The translations under genes and the position numbers were made by a program. Under the pieces are notes generated by a model. That model had not been told where the DNA came from. It searched no databases and worked only from the letters and a program-made list of their open reading frames with translations. 6,060 bases of DNA from a virus: positions 1 through 6,060 of IMG/VR virus record IMGVR_UViG_3300020041_000038, one strand, 5' to 3'. Positions within the stretch are counted from its first letter, which is position 1. Every line of letters starts with the position of its first letter. Shown here piece by piece: positions 1 to 6,060 of this stretch.

Positions 1-121
1 AAGCAAATGAAGCTTCAACAGCAATACGCTTTGGAGCAGATGCAAAAACAAGGTGAAATCAACTACGCAAACTGGCAGAAACAGTTTGATTATGAGAATG
101 CTTACAACGATCCCACGAAGG
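1..121. repeat. Terminal redundancy, copy 1. Identical to 5940..6060; wrap-around of a circular genome
   Basis: Base-by-base comparison: positions 1..121 (aagcaaatgaagcttcaacagcaatacgc...cccacgaagg) match 5940..6060 at a constant offset of 5939. The repeat lies inside a continuous reading frame. Confidence 0.95.
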
Positions 122-1116
122 TTTTCGATCGTTATTTGAAGGCTGGTGTTACCCCTGCGGCCGTTTTAGGCGCCTCAGGTGTTGGCATTAATGCTACCAT
201 GTCTGGCGGTTCTTCAGGCTCCGTCGGTGCTGGCGGCCCTTCAGGCGGTTCTTTCGACTTTTCCAGTCCTCTACCTCCTGGCGCTGGCTCTGCCGCCGTG
301 GGTACCGCTCTCGATGCCTTGGGCGTCAATTCAACCATTGAGCGTAATAAGGCCGCCGCTAATCTCGATAACGCCCAAGCTGAAGATATTCGTAACAAGA
401 TGCCTACTAAGGAGCAAGGCCAGGCTCTTATCGAGCTCGAGAAGCAGCTAAAGCTAGCTAACGTCAACAGTCAGTCTTCGCTTGCTACTTATTATGGCGA
501 GTTAGCTATCAATCAGGAAGCCTACAACAAGTATGCGGACCTCGCTGCCACTTATGATTTCCAGCGCATCCAGTCTGCGTATGCTGAACAGGTTGAGCGT
601 ACTCGTCGCCTTCGTGCTGAGAATGATGCTGAAATCCCTCTCCTCGAGCAATCCGCAGCTGCTAACCTCGCTTATCTTCGCGCCCTTGCTTGCGCCTCTA
701 ATGCCTCCGCTCGAGAATCCTGGACCCGCACTGGCCTTCTCGACATTCAGCAGCAGGATATGCAGCGTATGTTTGAAGTCACTTGGGATACCCCCGTAAA
801 AGTGCCCCTGGTTGACGAGAAAGGCAAACCTACTGGAGAGTTCGAAGAGATTACAGGTCGTGAATATTACTCTTACCTCCGCGGTCTTGATATTAGCCAA
901 GGTCGTCAGAGTCTTTCCGGCAATTGGTTTAGCATTCGCAAGGATAAGAATGCTCTGTTTTTCGATGTTACAAAGGCGTTCGCTACTGCCGCGGGCATTT
1001 ACGCCGCTTCTAAAGCCGGAGCTCCTACCGGGACAGAGACTATGTCTGAGCGCTATAGCCGGGATGGCGAATTTGTAGGAGGTACACTCGTTACCCGACG
1101 CAATCTGAAGCGATAG
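1..1116 (+). CDS. VP2: DNA pilot / minor capsid protein VP2 (protein H-like), C-terminal part. This is the same gene as 5799..6060, continued across the circular junction
   Basis: The frame is open from base 1 (codons aag caa atg...) to TAG at 1114..1116, and is in phase with the ATG at 5799 once the 5939 offset is applied. Its features are typical of microvirus pilot proteins: a Q-rich coiled-coil-like segment (QQKQMKLQQQYALEQMQKQ), a KAGVTPAAVLG motif resembling the conserved AG-NP motif, and a Gly/Ser-rich low-complexity tract (SGGSSGSVGAGGPSGG). The track ORF 7..1116 is only the part downstream of an internal Met. Confidence 0.85.
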   Translation, partial: KQMKLQQQYALEQMQKQGEINYANWQKQFDYENAYNDPTKVFDRYLKAGVTPAAVLGASGVGINATMSGGSSGSVGAGGPSGGSFDFSSPLPPGAGSAAVGTALDALGVNSTIERNKAAANLDNAQAEDIRNKMPTKEQGQALIELEKQLKLANVNSQSSLATYYGELAINQEAYNKYADLAATYDFQRIQSAYAEQVERTRRLRAENDAEIPLLEQSAAANLAYLRALACASNASARESWTRTGLLDIQQQDMQRMFEVTWDTPVKVPLVDEKGKPTGEFEEITGREYYSYLRGLDISQGRQSLSGNWFSIRKDKNALFFDVTKAFATAAGIYAASKAGAPTGTETMSERYSRDGEFVGGTLVTRRNLKR

Positions 1117-1199
1117 TGAACAATTTTTTAGACGTTTTGAACTTTGTATTTGTTGCTCCTTGTTGCATCTTTGCATTGTAAACCAATAACCATATTGTT

Positions 1200-1520
1200 A
1201 TGAAAAAAGTAACCAAACAGTCTCGTATTAATGATTTGGTGATCGACGTTATCGAGTACGCTTTCACTGAATGGCTTGTCCGCCAAGGTATATTCAGCGC
1301 TTTTAAGGTGAACTACGAGAGCACTGTTTCGCCCTATCGGAGTTTTCGCGAACGCCTGCGTGCTCATATTCGGCGCTCCCTTTGTAGTCCTGGCTTTGAT
1401 CCCAGTAGGCTTATTTCCTCCGCCTTCTTATTTGCTGCGACATCCGAGGGCGTTGAATTTTGGCAAAAGCAGTCAGCTGCTTGGGAGCGATTTTATGCAA
1501 GATTACAAGCAAGACTTTAA
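1200..1520 (+). CDS. Hypothetical small basic protein, 106 aa, Arg-rich
   Basis: ATG at 1200, TAA at 1518..1520, same strand as the core genes. It occupies its own space between VP2 and the next ORF without overlap. By hand count it is net basic (about 17 K/R against about 10 D/E). I recognise no motif. Confidence 0.55.
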   Translation: MKKVTKQSRINDLVIDVIEYAFTEWLVRQGIFSAFKVNYESTVSPYRSFRERLRAHIRRSLCSPGFDPSRLISSAFLFAATSEGVEFWQKQSAAWERFYARLQARL

Positions 1521-1531
1521 ATTATACTATT

Positions 1532-1855
1532 ATGGCAGAAATTCATGTTGTTATTCGCCGTATCAACCCGGCCCTCAAAATCGACCTTGTTCAGGTAGGA
1601 CGTCTTAAAGATTGTCAGTTTGAGCCTCTTCCTCCCAGCGCTATCGAGAACTCCCCTATTACAGACTTTTTAAAGAGTTCGAATATTAGCGATTCGTCTT
1701 ACGTCAACCATTCGGATATCTCCAAACTCATCGCCGCATGCGAGAGTCTTCCCGGCTTCGATATCGAGTTTTTTGACAATACGATTATTCTTATTTTCGA
1801 CTTTGAACTTGACTGCAATGAAAGCACGACGAAAGAAGAAGAGCCGGGGAACTAA
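1532..1855 (+). CDS. Hypothetical small acidic protein, 107 aa
   Basis: The first ATG in frame is at 1532 (MAEIHVVIRR...), 11 nt after the previous stop. The track start at 1460 is a TTG that overlaps the preceding ORF. Stop is TAA at 1853..1855. A strong intrinsic terminator follows 45 nt downstream. The C-terminal half is D/E-rich (FDIEFFD...DFELDCNESTTKEEEPGN). Confidence 0.55.
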   Translation: MAEIHVVIRRINPALKIDLVQVGRLKDCQFEPLPPSAIENSPITDFLKSSNISDSSYVNHSDISKLIAACESLPGFDIEFFDNTIILIFDFELDCNESTTKEEEPGN

Positions 1856-1900
1856 GGTAGTAACCCGCCCTCTTGGTGGAAGAGTTCTTTGACTGTGACG

Positions 1901-1935
1901 CTCCCCGGGGAGTTTTCCTCCCCTGGGAGTTTTTT
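1901..1935 (+). terminator. Rho-independent terminator
   Basis: ctccccggggag (1901..1912) pairs with ctcccctgggag (1918..1929) across the loop ttttc (1913..1917). This gives 11 bp, mostly G:C, with one C/T mismatch (1906/1924), followed directly by TTTTTT (1930..1935). It sits just after the last ORF of the VP2 block. Confidence 0.8.
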
Positions 1936-1947
1936 GCTCTCGAACTC

Positions 1948-2081
1948 ACCGAATTTATTCGGTATATAGATTCGCGAAGTGAGCCATGGAGCTCGAAGAC
2001 GCGCAGCGTCCCGGCCGTTAAGGCCGTCGAGCGGCGTAACGAAGCAGTTTTCGCGCTCGAAAGTACCGTCTTTCGAAGCGC
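1948..2081 (+). other. Cluster of stable stem-loops in noncoding DNA; candidate ssDNA replication or priming element
   Basis: Pairings traced by hand. (a) 1948..1963: accgaa/ttcggt, 6 bp, loop ttta. (b) Palindrome ttcgcgaa at 1971..1978. (c) A three-way junction at 1991..2032: outer stem gctcga/tcgagc (1991..1996 with 2027..2032) encloses hairpin gacgc-gca-gcgtc (1998..2010) and hairpin cggcc-gttaa-ggccg (2012..2026), leaving only two unpaired junction bases. (d) 2053..2081: gcgctcgaaag/ctttcgaagcgc, 11 bp with one bulged A, loop taccgt. There is no ATG-initiated ORF here. Confidence 0.6.
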
Positions 2082-2099
2082 ATAATAACGTTTTCGGAT

Positions 2100-2300
2100 A
2101 TGGATTATTTTGACTTTCGACCTAGATCTTCTCCAATAATTGACTGCGTTTCTTACCGCTACTCCGTTGGCGCATATCGCGGCAAAAATCGAATTGTTAT
2201 TGCTTGGTTCGCCGACGAGGCCTCCGCTGAAGATTATCTCACTCGGTGTCGCCTCGAGAGGCCTTATATTAAGTTTGATTGCCTTCAAAGCCTATTTTAA
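2100..2300 (+). CDS. Hypothetical 66-aa protein whose stop overlaps the Rep start
   Basis: ATG at 2100. The stop TAA at 2298..2300 shares its last base with the VP4 ATG at 2300..2302, giving a TAATG overlap. It fills the gap between the structured noncoding tract and VP4 exactly. The composition is non-repetitive and globular-looking (YSVGAYRGKNRIVIAWFADEASAEDYLTRC). Confidence 0.5.
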   Translation: MDYFDFRPRSSPIIDCVSYRYSVGAYRGKNRIVIAWFADEASAEDYLTRCRLERPYIKFDCLQSLF

Positions 2301-3370
2301 TGCCTTGTTCATCACCCATATGGATACGTAATCGTCGCTATTTTGACAAAAAGAATCCTTGTCGAAATGGTTCTGACGTTGCTAAGTCTGCTTTAGCTCT
2401 TCGTCCCTGGGACATTGCCCGCCAATGGTTAATGGTCCCGTGCGGAAAATGCGAGGACTGCCTGCGTCGCCAGCGTAATGATTGGTTCGTGAGACTAGAG
2501 CGTGAGCTTGCCCGTTGCAAGGCGGATAGCCTACAGGCGATATTTATTACCATTACGATCGCCCCTAAGTATTATGACGAAGCGTTACTTGACCCCTCTA
2601 AGTTTATTCGACGATGGAATGAACGCGTCCGTCACACGCTTGGACATTCTTTCAAGCACGCGTTTTTTCAAGAGTTTGGTACTCATCCGGAAATAGGCTC
2701 AGAGCCTCGTCTACATTTCCATGGTTTTTTGTTTGGCACCAACTGTTTGTACAACGATATTCGAGTGGCCGTCCGCGACCTTGGCTTTGTTTGGCTAGCA
2801 AAGGCTACCCATAAGCGTGCTCGTTATTGCGTTAAGTATGTTACTAAACAGATTCAATTCAACCCCGAAGACGTTTCGGATAAATATGTTACTGTAAATG
2901 GAAATCTTACACCTTTATCTTGCCTCCTCCAACATCGCCGCTATACGCGAAAATTCATATCTGCTGGCGTTGGTGATTTTCTTGGCTATATGCCTCGGCC
3001 TTCTGCTCGTATTTCGTCGTGGTCTTATTTCGATTTTGAGAAGCGTATCAATTATAATTACTCGATTCCTCGATATTACCTTAGATACCTTAAACAAGAA
3101 GACGAAGTTTCACGTTCGATTGCTGCTGCTGACTCTTACGCACGTTTTAGCAAGTCTCCTTTGGTTAAACGTATTGTGTCTTTGTGTGTTGAGCGGTTCA
3201 ATCTCAATTCCGCCGTATCCCGTAGAGAGGCATATACGTGGGAACTGAAGCAGATAATGCGTTTTTCTGCATCCTCTCGCAAGCTACCCGATTTTGATCC
3301 CCCTACTTGGTTAGATTTGGATATTCTTCAATTCTGGCAAGATCATTACAAACTTCAACTAAACATTTAA
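2300..3370 (+). CDS. VP4: Replication initiation protein VP4 (HUH rolling-circle endonuclease, phiX174 gene A-like), 356 aa
   Basis: Start chosen at ATG 2300 (MPCSSPIWIRNRRY...), which fits the usual microvirus VP4 N-terminus. The track start at 2279 is a TTG. Motifs seen: Cys cluster CGKCEDC (2441..2461), motif 1 FITITI (2543..2560), HUH motif LHFHGFLF (HFH at 2714..2722), and a two-tyrosine motif YCVKYVTK (Tyr codons at 2825..2827 and 2837..2839) with the Y-x-x-K-Y spacing of phiX174 protein A. Stop is TAA at 3368..3370. Confidence 0.92.
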   Translation: MPCSSPIWIRNRRYFDKKNPCRNGSDVAKSALALRPWDIARQWLMVPCGKCEDCLRRQRNDWFVRLERELARCKADSLQAIFITITIAPKYYDEALLDPSKFIRRWNERVRHTLGHSFKHAFFQEFGTHPEIGSEPRLHFHGFLFGTNCLYNDIRVAVRDLGFVWLAKATHKRARYCVKYVTKQIQFNPEDVSDKYVTVNGNLTPLSCLLQHRRYTRKFISAGVGDFLGYMPRPSARISSWSYFDFEKRINYNYSIPRYYLRYLKQEDEVSRSIAAADSYARFSKSPLVKRIVSLCVERFNLNSAVSRREAYTWELKQIMRFSASSRKLPDFDPPTWLDLDILQFWQDHYKLQLNI

Positions 3371-3373
3371 TTT

Positions 3374-5164
3374 ATGGGAAAACAGCCTTTTATTTCTCAT
3401 GCCGTAAATGGCTACTCTCGATACGACGTTCCCGAGAGTAAAGCCTTTACTTGCACGCCGGGTATTTTGTATCCAGTGCGCATTGATTTTGTTAACGCCC
3501 GTGACCGCGTATCTATTGAGCAAGGCATCGATGTTCGTAGCAACCCGCTCGCTGTCCCAACCTTTAATCCTTTCACTGTTCGGCTCCATCGTTTTTACGT
3601 GCCGCTTCAGTTGTATCATCCTGAGTTGAGGACGAACAGCAGTAAATTTGATATGAACAATCTAAGCTTGAACTTTATTGCCGCTTCCACTACCGGTTCA
3701 TACGAATACACGACCGACAACTACCCTTACTCTAACTCGTTGCTTCGTTGGCTACGTGTCGTTCCCGCATCTATTCCGACTCCGACTTCGAGTAACGTAC
3801 CAGTGTCCCCCAGCCTCACGGCAGCTCAGTTGTCGTATCCCTTAGGCTGGTGCAATGCCGACACTTATCTTGCTTACTGGGACATCGTTCGTAATTATTA
3901 TAGCTATTCTCAGTGGGGCCTTTATTCCTTTGCTTGGCCTTCTAGCTGGTATTTTATTCCCAATTCTACCGGCACTGCGTATAATGTCCCTCAGTTTAGT
4001 GAGAAGGCGGTGTTTTTTAGTCAGAGGTTTGGCAATCTTGAGTTTTTGGACGCATTCTTCGAGAGTCAGTTTTACCCTTCGTCCGTAACTTCTCCGAATA
4101 ACACGTATAATCGAGGGAACCTCTTCTCGCAGGTGCTTTTGTCTGATCTTGGTGCTACAATCACCGCCTCTAAGGACGGTTACCCCGTTTCTACTATTTA
4201 TCCTGGAAACACGACGTTGACGACCGCCGGTCCCGCAGGCCAATTTTCTACCACCGCCGCTAACACGACCGTTACTACTCTTGGCGCCTTCCTCGTCGCT
4301 CATCCGATGGCCGTCGTGCCCTCGAATCCTGATCGTTATAGCAGGTTGCTTCCTGTCGGCTCTTCCGAAGGGGTTTCGATGACTGGCGTGTCGACCATCC
4401 CTCAGTTAGCCATTGCTTCTCGTCTTCAGGAATACAAAGACCTTCTCGGTGCTGGCGGTAGTCGTTATAGTGATTGGCTGGAAACGTTTTTTGCCTCTAA
4501 AATCGAGCATGTAGACCGCCCCAAGCTTCTCTTTAGCGCCTCGCAGACTGTTAATGTGCAGGTTATCATGAATCAGGCTGGAACTGGCAATTTCAGCGGC
4601 CCAAATGTTACCGGTTCTCTTGGTCAGCAGGGTGGCGCTATCGCTTTCAACGAGCGTTTAGGTCGGCGGCAGTCTTATTATTTCCGCGAGCCTGGTTATA
4701 TCATTGATATGTTGAGCATTCGACCCGTTTATTACTGGGCCGGCGTTTATCCTGACTATCTCCACTATACCGGTGCTGACTACTTTAATCCCATCTATAA
4801 CGATATTGGATATCAGGACGTTCCGGGATTCCAGTTTGGCTTTGGAACCACATCTGCCTCGGAGACTGTGGCTTATGAGCCTTGTTTTAACGAGTTTAGA
4901 TCTTCTTATGACGAGGTTCTTGGTCAGCTGTCCCGTTTTCAAACTTCAAAAAGTCAGATTCCCCTTTACGCTTATTGGGTACAGCAACGCGTTTTGTCCG
5001 CAAGCTATAATGCATACTACTCTCTCCTGTTTACGGATATGGGTCAGGTTAATTCTCCATTCGCGTCTAACTCGGAGGATAACTTCTTTGTCAATCTTTC
5101 GTATTCCATTCAAAAGAAGAATTTGGTTAACAAGACCTTTGCTACTCGTTTGTCTAATCGCTAA
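3374..5164 (+). CDS. VP1: Major capsid protein VP1 (protein F family), 596 aa
   Basis: This is the longest ORF, with ATG at 3374 three nt after the VP4 stop. It has segments characteristic of microvirus F/VP1 proteins: an N-terminal block SRYDVPESKAFTCTPGILYPVRIDFVNARDRVSIE, then PFTVRLHRFYVPLQLY, RLQEYKDLLGAGGSRYSDWLETFF, GYIIDMLSIRPVYY, EPCFNEFRSSYDEVLGQL, and the C-terminal FFVNLSYSIQKKNLV. A poorly conserved-looking S/T/N/P/Y-rich central region fits the variable surface insertion. Confidence 0.95.
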   Translation: MGKQPFISHAVNGYSRYDVPESKAFTCTPGILYPVRIDFVNARDRVSIEQGIDVRSNPLAVPTFNPFTVRLHRFYVPLQLYHPELRTNSSKFDMNNLSLNFIAASTTGSYEYTTDNYPYSNSLLRWLRVVPASIPTPTSSNVPVSPSLTAAQLSYPLGWCNADTYLAYWDIVRNYYSYSQWGLYSFAWPSSWYFIPNSTGTAYNVPQFSEKAVFFSQRFGNLEFLDAFFESQFYPSSVTSPNNTYNRGNLFSQVLLSDLGATITASKDGYPVSTIYPGNTTLTTAGPAGQFSTTAANTTVTTLGAFLVAHPMAVVPSNPDRYSRLLPVGSSEGVSMTGVSTIPQLAIASRLQEYKDLLGAGGSRYSDWLETFFASKIEHVDRPKLLFSASQTVNVQVIMNQAGTGNFSGPNVTGSLGQQGGAIAFNERLGRRQSYYFREPGYIIDMLSIRPVYYWAGVYPDYLHYTGADYFNPIYNDIGYQDVPGFQFGFGTTSASETVAYEPCFNEFRSSYDEVLGQLSRFQTSKSQIPLYAYWVQQRVLSASYNAYYSLLFTDMGQVNSPFASNSEDNFFVNLSYSIQKKNLVNKTFATRLSNR

Positions 5165-5175
5165 TACTTACTCTT

Positions 5176-5472
5176 ATGCCTCTTGATTGGTTATTGCAGG
5201 ATGCTCCTGCCTATGTTTCTCGCGGTCAGCGTATCCTTTCGGTTCTCGACGGTTCTGGCACTGTTGACGTCCTCCCTGGTCGTCCGGATGTAGTGGTAGA
5301 GCCTTCTGACTTCGATAAGGGTGAAAAGTTCAACCCTGAGATTGATTTTGATCCTAATTCCTTCTCTCGCATGGATAAGTTCGACGGCCTCGAGGTTGGT
5401 CAGGAACTTATTGATTCAGAGTTGGATAGATCGAAGCCTGCTCCAAAAACCCCTAATCCTGAAGAAAAATAG
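5176..5472 (+). CDS. Hypothetical acidic 98-aa protein; weak candidate for an internal scaffolding-type protein
   Basis: ATG at 5176, 11 nt after the VP1 stop; TAG at 5470..5472. By hand count it has about 21 D/E against about 11 K/R. It is rich in D, F and P (EPSDFDKGEKFNPEIDFDPNSF) and has a Pro/Lys-rich tail. The functional label rests only on position and charge. Confidence 0.5.
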   Translation: MPLDWLLQDAPAYVSRGQRILSVLDGSGTVDVLPGRPDVVVEPSDFDKGEKFNPEIDFDPNSFSRMDKFDGLEVGQELIDSELDRSKPAPKTPNPEEK

Positions 5473-5605
5473 TACACTCTTTACTTGACGATATATGCTA
5501 CGTGCGCGGACCCCTTCGCCGAGAGTTCGTGAATCGTTGAAGGTTATTGGTAACGACTGCCGGAGAGGCCGCGCATTTTTCTATCGTTCTTTAAATTTTG
5601 TCCCT

Positions 5606-5797
5606 ATGTCTGACACTAAGCCATCTTTTTATAAGTCGAAGGCTTTTTGGACGCTTGTTTCGTCTATAGTCGCCGCATTAGCTGCTTTTTTTCTTGCCTC
5701 GTGTTCGGCGCAGGCTAAAGTTTACCGCAACGGTGTTCATATCGACACTGTCCGTGTAGATTACGTCGTTCGTTCGAACAATTTTTCGCTTCCGTAG
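5606..5797 (+). CDS. Small predicted lipoprotein, 63-aa precursor with a mature part of about 31 aa. Candidate lysis/release or superinfection-exclusion factor
   Basis: From ATG 5606 the product is MSDTKPSFYKSK-AFWTLVSSIVAALAAFF-LASC-SAQAKVYRNGVHIDTVRVDYVVRSNNFSLP. That is a Lys-containing n-region, an uninterrupted hydrophobic h-region, and a canonical lipobox L-A-S-C with Cys at residue 33. TAG at 5795..5797 lies one base before the VP2 ATG. The alternative upstream ATG at 5495 would add an Arg-rich 37-aa extension running through a structured intergenic tract and would bury the signal peptide, so I consider it less likely. Confidence 0.6.
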   Translation: MSDTKPSFYKSKAFWTLVSSIVAALAAFFLASCSAQAKVYRNGVHIDTVRVDYVVRSNNFSLP

Positions 5798-5798
5798 T

Positions 5799-6060
5799 AT
5801 GAGACTTATTGATTTCAAGAGCTATGTCGAGCCCGTCTCCACTGGCGCTATACTCGGTGCCGCTGGCATTTCAGCCGGCGGTCAGGTTGCCTCTGGCTTA
5901 TTTAAACCTTCGCTCAATAGGCAATGGAAATACCAGCAGAAGCAAATGAAGCTTCAACAGCAATACGCTTTGGAGCAGATGCAAAAACAAGGTGAAATCA
6001 ACTACGCAAACTGGCAGAAACAGTTTGATTATGAGAATGCTTACAACGATCCCACGAAGG
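5799..6060 (+). CDS. VP2: DNA pilot / minor capsid protein VP2, N-terminal part. It runs off the window end and continues as 1..1116
   Basis: I translated by hand from ATG 5799: MRLIDFKSYVEPVSTGAILGAAGISAGGQVASGLFKPSLNRQWKYQQKQMKLQQQ... with no stop before the window end. The Gly/Ala-rich hydrophobic N-terminus is typical of microvirus VP2. The ORF is missing from the track only because it has no stop inside the window. The reconstructed full length is 418 aa. Confidence 0.85.
   Translation, partial: MRLIDFKSYVEPVSTGAILGAAGISAGGQVASGLFKPSLNRQWKYQQKQMKLQQQYALEQMQKQGEINYANWQKQFDYENAYNDPTK
5940..6060. repeat. Terminal redundancy, copy 2. Identical to 1..121
   Basis: Same comparison as for copy 1; offset 5939 nt. 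Confidence 0.95.

Follow-up and report, generated by a model that had tools for sequence, protein, structure and literature searches.

A 63-codon open reading frame (ORF) at positions 5606–5797 of IMG/VR virus record IMGVR_UViG_3300020041_000038 is well supported as a real gene under strong purifying selection, firmly so because it is conserved in relatives, and it appears to encode a miniature prolipoprotein, with the lipid modification itself a prediction. The 6,060-nucleotide (nt) stretch that was analyzed, positions 1 to 6,060 of that record and referred to here as the window, holds an entire circular microvirus genome; the genome measures 5,939 nt, and terminal redundancy accounts for the other 121 nt. 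The lipoprotein gene appears to be core to a large clade of gut microviruses, and we tentatively propose that its mature lipopeptide is a single-gene lysis or release lipoprotein, a host-envelope effector that would serve the release of progeny.

Lipoprotein Signal of the ORF

The gene and its parts are as follows.

5606–5797, plus strand: lipoprotein ORF of 63 codons, with ATG at 5606 and a TAG stop at 5795–5797
5606–5701, plus strand: signal peptide, residues 1–32, by direct reading; the most conserved part of the protein
5606–5641, plus strand: n-region with lysines K5, K10, and K12
5642–5701, plus strand: uncharged residues 13–32, of which residues 30–32 open the lipobox
5693–5704, plus strand: lipobox L30-A31-S32-C33, in agreement with a PROSITE PS51257-type rule, with the Cys33 codon at 5702–5704
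5702–5794, plus strand: mature 31-residue peptide C33–P63, CSAQAKVYRNGVHIDTVRVDYVVRSNNFSLP, with the core G43-V-H-I-D-T-V-R-V-D-Y-x-x-R-S invariant or nearly so

The product of 63 amino acids (aa) is MSDTKPSFYKSKAFWTLVSSIVAALAAFFLASCSAQAKVYRNGVHIDTVRVDYVVRSNNFSLP. An initial annotation, made from the letters of the window, had described the gene's coordinates, an n-region, an h-region, a LASC lipobox, and a mature part of about 31 residues, all of which direct reading of the sequence bears out. The PS51257-type rule used here calls for a charged n-region, an uncharged h-region, and the motif [LVI][ASTVI][GAS]C with the Cys at position 15–35. Among ORFs of at least 40 aa on both strands of the window, the 63-aa ORF alone agrees with it. 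Shuffled genomes hold a mean of 0.14 such ORFs, and because 12% of them have at least one, the lipoprotein pattern in a single genome is, taken alone, suggestive, and the case rests on the relatives.

Homologues were found in a 5.8-billion-protein set (337, then 766 proteins), in 41 GenBank microvirus records, and on 148 IMG/VR stretches. The close-locus analyses cover 80 of these 148 stretches, which together with the window make 81 sequences. Every one of the 81 retains Cys33 and a small residue (Ser, Ala, or Gly) at −1, and so do 14 divergent GenBank homologues with identities down to ∼35–50% and five relatives that carry a different mature peptide (type B, below). The strict PS51257-type rule is passed by 268 of the 287 database family members, and the 19 that fail mostly have Glu at −2, an odd residue at −3 or −4, or truncated or frameshifted calls. 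Weak sub-threshold library matches involve only the signal peptides of unrelated lipoprotein families, among them YgdI/YgdR, Lpp/OprI, and mycoplasma lipoproteins. A literature search found no paper describing a lipoprotein or lipobox in any microvirus, and the only prior trace of one would seem to be the automated name "lipoprotein" on a single nr entry, DAW10193.1.

An AlphaFold2 model built from a 22-sequence alignment places a helix over residues 12–40 and has low confidence in the mature part (predicted local distance difference test score, pLDDT, of ∼50), the sequence of which can be read as strand-turn-strand. The residues at +2 to +6 after Cys33 are S-A-Q-A-K, with no acidic residue among them, and an Asp or Glu occurs anywhere at these positions in only 5 of 308 family members. 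Lipoproteins of Bacteroidota are exported to the surface only with acidic residues after the Cys, in the forms CS(D/E)2, K-(D/E)2, or Q-A-(D/E)2 (PMC6222051). Because this acidic export motif is absent, the mature lipopeptide is predicted to face the periplasm and not the cell surface.

Purifying Selection and the Translation Start

None of the 80 IMG/VR loci interrupts the 63-codon frame, and the 81 nucleotide versions are all distinct, all intact, and all 192 nt long. Across these versions the ratio of nonsynonymous to synonymous substitution rates (dN/dS) is 0.067, with a dS of ∼1.4 that places synonymous sites near saturation, and the mean column entropy at codon positions 1, 2, and 3 is 0.27, 0.16, and 1.12 bits, respectively. 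In either shifted sense frame the ratio exceeds 2.6. Within the gene, dN/dS is 0.045 in the signal peptide compared with 0.093 in the mature part, and F14, W15, L17, A24, and F29 are invariant among divergent homologues. The proposal in the initial annotation that this is a stand-alone, functional miniature lipoprotein gene is thus upheld by the low dN/dS, by the invariant lipobox Cys, and by the near-universal presence of the gene in the clade (below); its suggested check on close relatives likewise came out in favor of the gene, both ORF and lipobox being kept without stops or frameshifts.

Translation probably starts at the ATG at 5606, and this start is well supported over the one at 5495, which would give a 100-aa version that had also been considered. 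The longer ORF exists in the window, and automated gene calls often report it, but it is not maintained as a reading frame among relatives. In roughly one locus in three a stop codon falls three to four codons before Met38 of the 100-aa frame, and other loci read the 5495–5606 DNA in a different frame. The 100-aa call from 5495 is an artefact and a widespread annotation error, because the DNA upstream of the gene is a conserved structured non-coding element with the following parts.

5502–5580, plus strand: structured non-coding element, outside the gene, with flanks conserved from ∼5492 to 5588
5502–5509 and 5569–5576, plus strand: invariant, GC-rich 8-bp outer stem, GTGCGCGG pairing with CCGCGCAT
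5576–5580, plus strand: T-run after the inner helices

The consensus fold from a 54-sequence alignment has 22 pairs, with 98.3% of cells paired as against 33–47% when the partners are slid. Compensatory changes occur in ten pairs, and the observed values were reached by none of 500 shuffles. Within an inner helix, 8 of 9 pairs have such changes. The conserved loop reads GAGAGTTCGTGAAT. A single-sequence DNA fold of the upstream region is not significant; the structure is revealed by comparative analysis only, and an Rfam search with the element gave no match. Because G-T/G-U wobbles are tolerated, the element would act on the plus strand, as viral single-stranded DNA or as mRNA. Possible roles are that of a transcription attenuator or terminator following the capsid module and that of a complementary-strand origin. 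Where the lipoprotein gene sits elsewhere in the genome, the element is absent from the DNA directly 5′ of it. The covarying element, together with the closed or shifted upstream frames, settles against the 5495 start the check that had been proposed for it.

Exchange of Signal and Mature Modules

At least four different mature peptides are found behind the family signal peptide (…SKKFWTL..IVAAL.AFF..).

Mature type A: …GVHIDTVRVDY…
Mature type B: …HYVVQSASSIKSGDTTRTTITYEQ…
Mature type C: …TLTVRGAQVDSLDF…
Mature type D: …VLTFRGQGDVEFRYQG…

In turn, two or three unrelated signal peptides also precede mature type A, and in every combination the signal and mature parts join at [A/S/G]-Cys. Examples of this shuffling are seen in L095 (2547–2744), L097 (2387–2584), L099 (2428–2625), L129 (∼2789–2986), L109 (∼6896–7105), and L110 (∼6887–7120) and in proteins P0270–P0284. 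The strongest argument that lipidation matters is that the [A/S/G]-C junction survives the swap of either half, as would be the case if cleavage and lipidation at the Cys were required and the mature lipopeptide were itself an effector. In type B, position −2 is frequently Glu (L-E-S-C).

An ORF of 160–230 aa begins with the lipoprotein module in roughly half of the clusters made at 50% identity; the module is followed there by a Ser/Thr/Pro-rich stretch and then a J-like basic tail. The middle of these fused ORFs overlaps, in another frame, a normal-looking gene whose start codon makes the junction Cys codon. Examples, which also include proteins P0230–P0268, are as follows.

L087, 4688–5320: fused ORF
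L106, 1512–2114: fused ORF
L107, 6501–7085: fused ORF
L108, 6902–7594: fused ORF in Alistipes montrealensis kh20

Synonymous shuffles of the overlapping gene leave the fused frame open (P 0.06–0.46), and these ORFs may be passive read-through frames, with a real fusion or a frameshift product also possible. Longer fused relatives have a short hydrophobic stretch before the basic tail. A reading of the fused ORFs as u-spanin-like proteins was rejected, as their middle overlaps a normal gene and the frame is stop-poor by composition.

Distribution and Genomic Context

Near-universal presence of the gene was established on 34 full-length IMG/VR genomes that were new to the analysis and had been picked by similarity of the capsid protein (VP1) only. 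The lipoprotein gene is found in 33 of the 34, with 31 following the strict pattern and two carrying type B. It is likewise present in each of the 21 GenBank relatives fetched, as type A in 14, as type B in five, and as type B again in two more. In the window the gene lies among the following neighbors.

2279–3370: Rep gene
3374–5164: F-type major capsid gene VP1
5176–5472, plus strand: upstream neighbor, an acidic 98-aa scaffold-like ORF kept in relatives and with no family match
5799–6060, plus strand: downstream neighbor, the start of pilot gene VP2, which runs through the circular junction to 1116 and has PHROG pilot-protein matches

The VP2 ATG at 5799 lies 1 nt past the lipoprotein stop. 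The initial annotation had placed the gene between the capsid module and the pilot gene, and this holds for the window and for many relatives, where the gene occupies the interval between the scaffold-like ORF and VP2; it is not a fixed feature of the family, since the gene also occurs between VP2 and Rep (VP4), after VP1, or after Rep.

Over the 80 IMG/VR loci, the type-A allele has 77–92% identity to the window peptide and is accompanied by VP1 of 63–90% and VP2 of 40–92% identity. The Rep and scaffold backbone that accompanies type B is more divergent, and in one case type B is found together with a capsid that shares 86% identity with that of the window. The lipoprotein allele thus appears to track the Rep/scaffold backbone and not the capsid and pilot proteins that contact the host surface.

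Mosaicism is extreme when loci L001–L153 are compared with the window, the capsids falling into groups of ∼88% and 68% identity and the pilot proteins into groups of ∼85% and 42%. Capsid and pilot alleles assort independently of each other and of the Rep/scaffold/lipoprotein backbone (85–90%).

Homologues of the gene also occur in Alistipes chromosomes, inside microvirus prophages with Rep, capsid, scaffold-like, and pilot genes and with bacterial genes flanking them. The carriers include the cultured A. montrealensis kh20, and an Alistipes prophage is also the source of the only family member to which a bacterial name is attached. A capsid-based scan of GTDB genomes gave no match; a later alignment-based (A2) scan gave three Alistipes loci. 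The Alistipes prophage loci are as follows.

L102, ∼7300–13500 (GCA_019425285.1)
L104, L107, and L108–L110

Relatives in this clade probably infect or lysogenize Alistipes, so their hosts would be Bacteroidales, and the host of the window phage is predicted from these relatives. The G+C content of the window, 47%, is below that of Alistipes. Several of the prophages are flanked by a znuA-type ABC transporter operon on one side and by a pair of HTH_3 and HIT-family genes on the other, flanks that suggest a recurrent integration site.

Evidence for a Possible Lysis or Release Effector

Searches of Pfam, PHROGs, NCBIfam, and PADLOC gave no match beyond weak similarity to lipoprotein signal peptides, and none of 19 diverse family members had a Pfam match at E ≤ 10. 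A profile search of all PDB chain sequences returned chance matches only (E ∼1). When 1.84 billion representatives were searched exhaustively with a profile, no more than 71 clusters scored E ≤ 0.001; nearly all of them carry the family signal peptide or mature peptide, and two long proteins matched through a short repeated motif only. These results agree with the earlier view that the likeness to known small lipoproteins is one of architecture only: in architecture the ORF resembles the small effector lipoproteins of mobile elements, and by sequence it appears to be a member of none of their families.

Several lines of evidence lead us to favor a role in release. The lipoprotein is the only product of the genome with an export signal, and family library scans found no endolysin, holin, or peptidase among the genome's proteins. 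Hydrophobic ORFs embedded in other genes, as gene E is in phiX174, are present at the following positions.

3855–4088: embedded hydrophobic ORF in VP1
179–451: embedded hydrophobic ORF in VP2
2898–3248: embedded 116-aa hydrophobic ORF in the +1 frame in Rep (VP4), open in 78 of 80 close relatives

Those in VP1 and VP4 are no longer than shuffles predict and were rejected as E-like genes, synonymous shuffles giving equal open lengths with a median p of 0.83 for VP1 and 0.27 for VP4/Rep. The lipoprotein and an M15 peptidase never co-occur: the peptidase is found in none of 144 lipoprotein-bearing genomes, and the lipoprotein family in none of seven M15-bearing microviruses (L154–L160). The latter include phiHBP1, a phage of B. 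fragilis and the first cultured Bacteroides microvirus (PMC13064476), in which the gene lies as follows.

84–488, minus strand, in L154 (Bacteroides phage phiHBP1, PV598014): M15 peptidase gene

The two genes appear to behave as mutually exclusive alternatives in Bacteroidota-type microviruses. A release role is favored, in addition, because the lipoprotein allele follows the Rep/scaffold backbone and not the mosaic capsid and pilot genes and because the mature length of 31 aa (also the family median) matches that of the colicin lysis proteins.

In such a role, and by established lipoprotein biology, the precursor would be exported through Sec, receive a diacylglyceryl group on Cys33 from Lgt, and be cleaved before Cys33 by signal peptidase II, so that a 31-residue lipopeptide would remain, anchored in a leaflet that faces the periplasm. 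The short strand-turn-strand peptide might then engage a component of host envelope maintenance from the periplasmic side and would work not enzymatically but in the manner of the colicin-release lipoproteins.

Those proteins, the colicin lysis or bacteriocin release proteins (BRP; Pfam Lysis_col PF02402, for example ColE7 Cel and the pCloDF13 BRP), are likewise tiny prolipoproteins, with a non-enzymatic mature part of ∼28–33 residues as against 31 here, and in both cases a mobile element must export a large cargo across a diderm envelope. The BRP signal peptide is stable and adds to the effect of the protein, in parallel with the unusually conserved signal peptide of the present family, which may contribute in the same way, and the BRP target is the outer-membrane phospholipase A. 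The two nevertheless differ in that no sequence similarity was found and the ORF does not belong to PF02402, in the length of the signal peptide (32 residues here, 19 in theirs), and in their setting, which here is a presumptive Bacteroidales phage, whereas BRP belongs to an enterobacterial plasmid and releases proteins rather than virions. The BRP precursor has 47 aa, of which 19 form the signal peptide, and its overexpression leads to lethality and quasi-lysis (PMC2896534).

phiX174 E and the lysis proteins of single-stranded RNA phages offer another parallel, in that one small membrane-targeted protein serves a minimal genome without a muralytic enzyme. In contrast to E, the gene described here is stand-alone and not overprinted, and its product has a lipobox, is predicted to be cleaved, and would act, if at all, from the periplasmic side; with regard to E-type similarity, no Pfam or PHROG lysis family was matched. 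Spanins (the lambda Rz1 o-spanin and the T1 gp11 u-spanin) share with it an N-terminal lipoprotein signal, the small size of a phage protein, and, possibly, envelope disruption. However, the mature part here is not proline-rich and has no additional Cys. An Rz1-like o-spanin role was rejected on the grounds that the neighbors are the scaffold-like ORF and the pilot gene, with no i-spanin partner, endolysin, or holin, and a gp11-like u-spanin role on the grounds that the 63-aa protein ends in …RSNNFSLP with no hydrophobic C-terminal transmembrane segment. Among the functions put forward in the initial annotation, the evidence thus leans toward lysis or release over exclusion, and it argues against the o-spanin comparison.

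A number of points count against the proposed release function. No lysis protein was found that resembles it in sequence or structure, and a 31-residue non-enzymatic lipopeptide cannot itself cut peptidoglycan. Quasi-lysis of the colicin type releases proteins and is not known to release 25-nm virions. The complementarity of lipoprotein and M15 peptidase is confounded by phylogeny, the M15 genomes inspected being seven in number and belonging to other clades. The gene is also kept in prophages, where a constitutive lysis gene would be harmful, and a cytoplasmic lysis factor of the Q-beta A2 type could operate instead. Finally, several divergent mature types would be expected of specificity-determining exclusion factors as well.

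A bolder claim, which we regard as possible and hold more loosely than that of a release function as such, is that the family constitutes a new class of single-gene lysis protein, in which a cleaved, lipid-anchored 31-residue peptide built from swappable modules would kill Bacteroidales from the periplasm and replace the M15 peptidase. If true, an abundant phylum of the gut would prove to have a new weakness in its envelope. Few phages of the gut are as abundant as the microviruses. No lysis gene is known in those other than phiX174, and the mechanisms of lysis and of carriage immunity outside the phiX174 group are unknown (PMC3394797, PMC7062461). A short, clade-wide gene that can be synthesized is a concrete candidate for either: if it causes lysis, whatever it acts on would offer a new antibacterial target in Bacteroidales, and if it serves exclusion, it would lead to the receptor or the route of entry that these phages use. 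The question can be tested with the cultured Alistipes prophage strain, by resurrection of a microvirus from sequence, and against the cultured Bacteroides microvirus that uses a peptidase.

Alternative Functions

Given its predicted location, the lipopeptide might instead serve superinfection exclusion, which we consider the main alternative and somewhat less likely than release. It would bind the periplasmic side of an outer-membrane receptor or the incoming pilot conduit and so block adsorption or injection, covering infected cells, lysogens, and debris, on the model of T5 Llp on FhuA and Rtp45 on LptDE. Llp, Cor (T1/phi80), and Rtp45 (Rtp) are small phage lipoproteins that sit on the outer membrane, on its periplasmic face, and bind a host envelope protein (PMC9586334, PMC12685063), and the architecture and predicted location of a small lipoprotein without a surface-export motif agree with this model (PMC6222051). 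Small-genome lytic phages encode such factors, which can bind the periplasmic rim of the receptor by β-sheet addition (PMC12685063, PMC9586334), and gokushovirus carriage gives superinfection immunity by an unknown mechanism (PMC7062461). The retention of the gene in Alistipes prophages speaks for exclusion as well, as does the resemblance of alternative mature types on one signal peptide to the swapping of specificity modules. The gene abuts the pilot gene in the window, but VP2 is not its neighbor throughout the family. Neither the PDB profile search nor Pfam linked the peptide to Llp, Cor, or Rtp45, the disulfide pair of those proteins is lacking here, and in size the mature peptide reaches about half that of established exclusion lipoproteins such as the ∼6-kDa Rtp45 (PMC12685063). 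Furthermore, the type-A allele does not appear to co-vary with the VP1 and VP2 alleles that would set receptor or entry specificity. Selection on the gene is strongly purifying with no arms-race signal, and its near-universal presence is more typical of an essential than of an accessory function.

More doubtful still is some other role at the envelope, such as remodeling or vesiculation for replication or chronic release, the countering of an envelope defense, or aid to assembly at a membrane. Functions of this sort are left room by the fact that no family membership constrains the protein, and carrier states have been reported for microviruses (PMC9753089, PMC7062461). The module of some relatives shares its frame with a long ORF ending in a J-like basic tail, but such fused ORFs may be passively open frames, and nothing positive was found for any specific alternative.

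It is very improbable that the product is an uncleaved signal anchor that inhibits a membrane step of wall synthesis, in the way that phiX174 E acts on MraY and LysM on MurJ, with the Cys kept for some other reason. The 20-residue hydrophobic segment is indeed the most conserved part of the protein (dN/dS of 0.045 compared with 0.093), and AlphaFold2 models a single continuous helix over residues 12–40. However, there is no similarity to E, and type A occurs on two or three unrelated signal peptides with the [ASG]-C junction always kept. The idea that the real product is the 100-aa protein from 5495, or that the ORF is no gene at all, can practically be dismissed, as against the many automated calls of the 100-aa form stand the closed or shifted upstream frame in relatives, the compensatory changes of the structured element, and codon-level purifying selection on the 63-codon core.

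Other Features of the Genome

A scan for sigma-70 promoters and terminators found nothing close to the lipoprotein gene. The Shine-Dalgarno motif is absent from every gene of the window, and the leaders are A/T-rich, as is typical of Bacteroidota. The reconstructed VP2 is 418 aa long. The scaffold-like ORF at 5176–5472 is stop-free and conserved in 78 of the 80 close loci and in 10 of 27 divergent or other loci (a match was obtained in 14 of these), and library scans of the Pfam and PHROGs type gave no family match for it.

A small plus-strand ORF at 1773–1892 (ATG at 1818) overlaps, in another frame, the 3′ end of a 131-aa ORF at 1460–1855. Its C-terminal end reads MKARRKKKSRGTKVVTRPLGGRVL, a basic tail that appears to resemble the phiX174 J DNA-binding protein, and this tail, RRGGRRG..RPK.K.IPLGGSHL, is kept in relatives L085, L087, L106, and L107.

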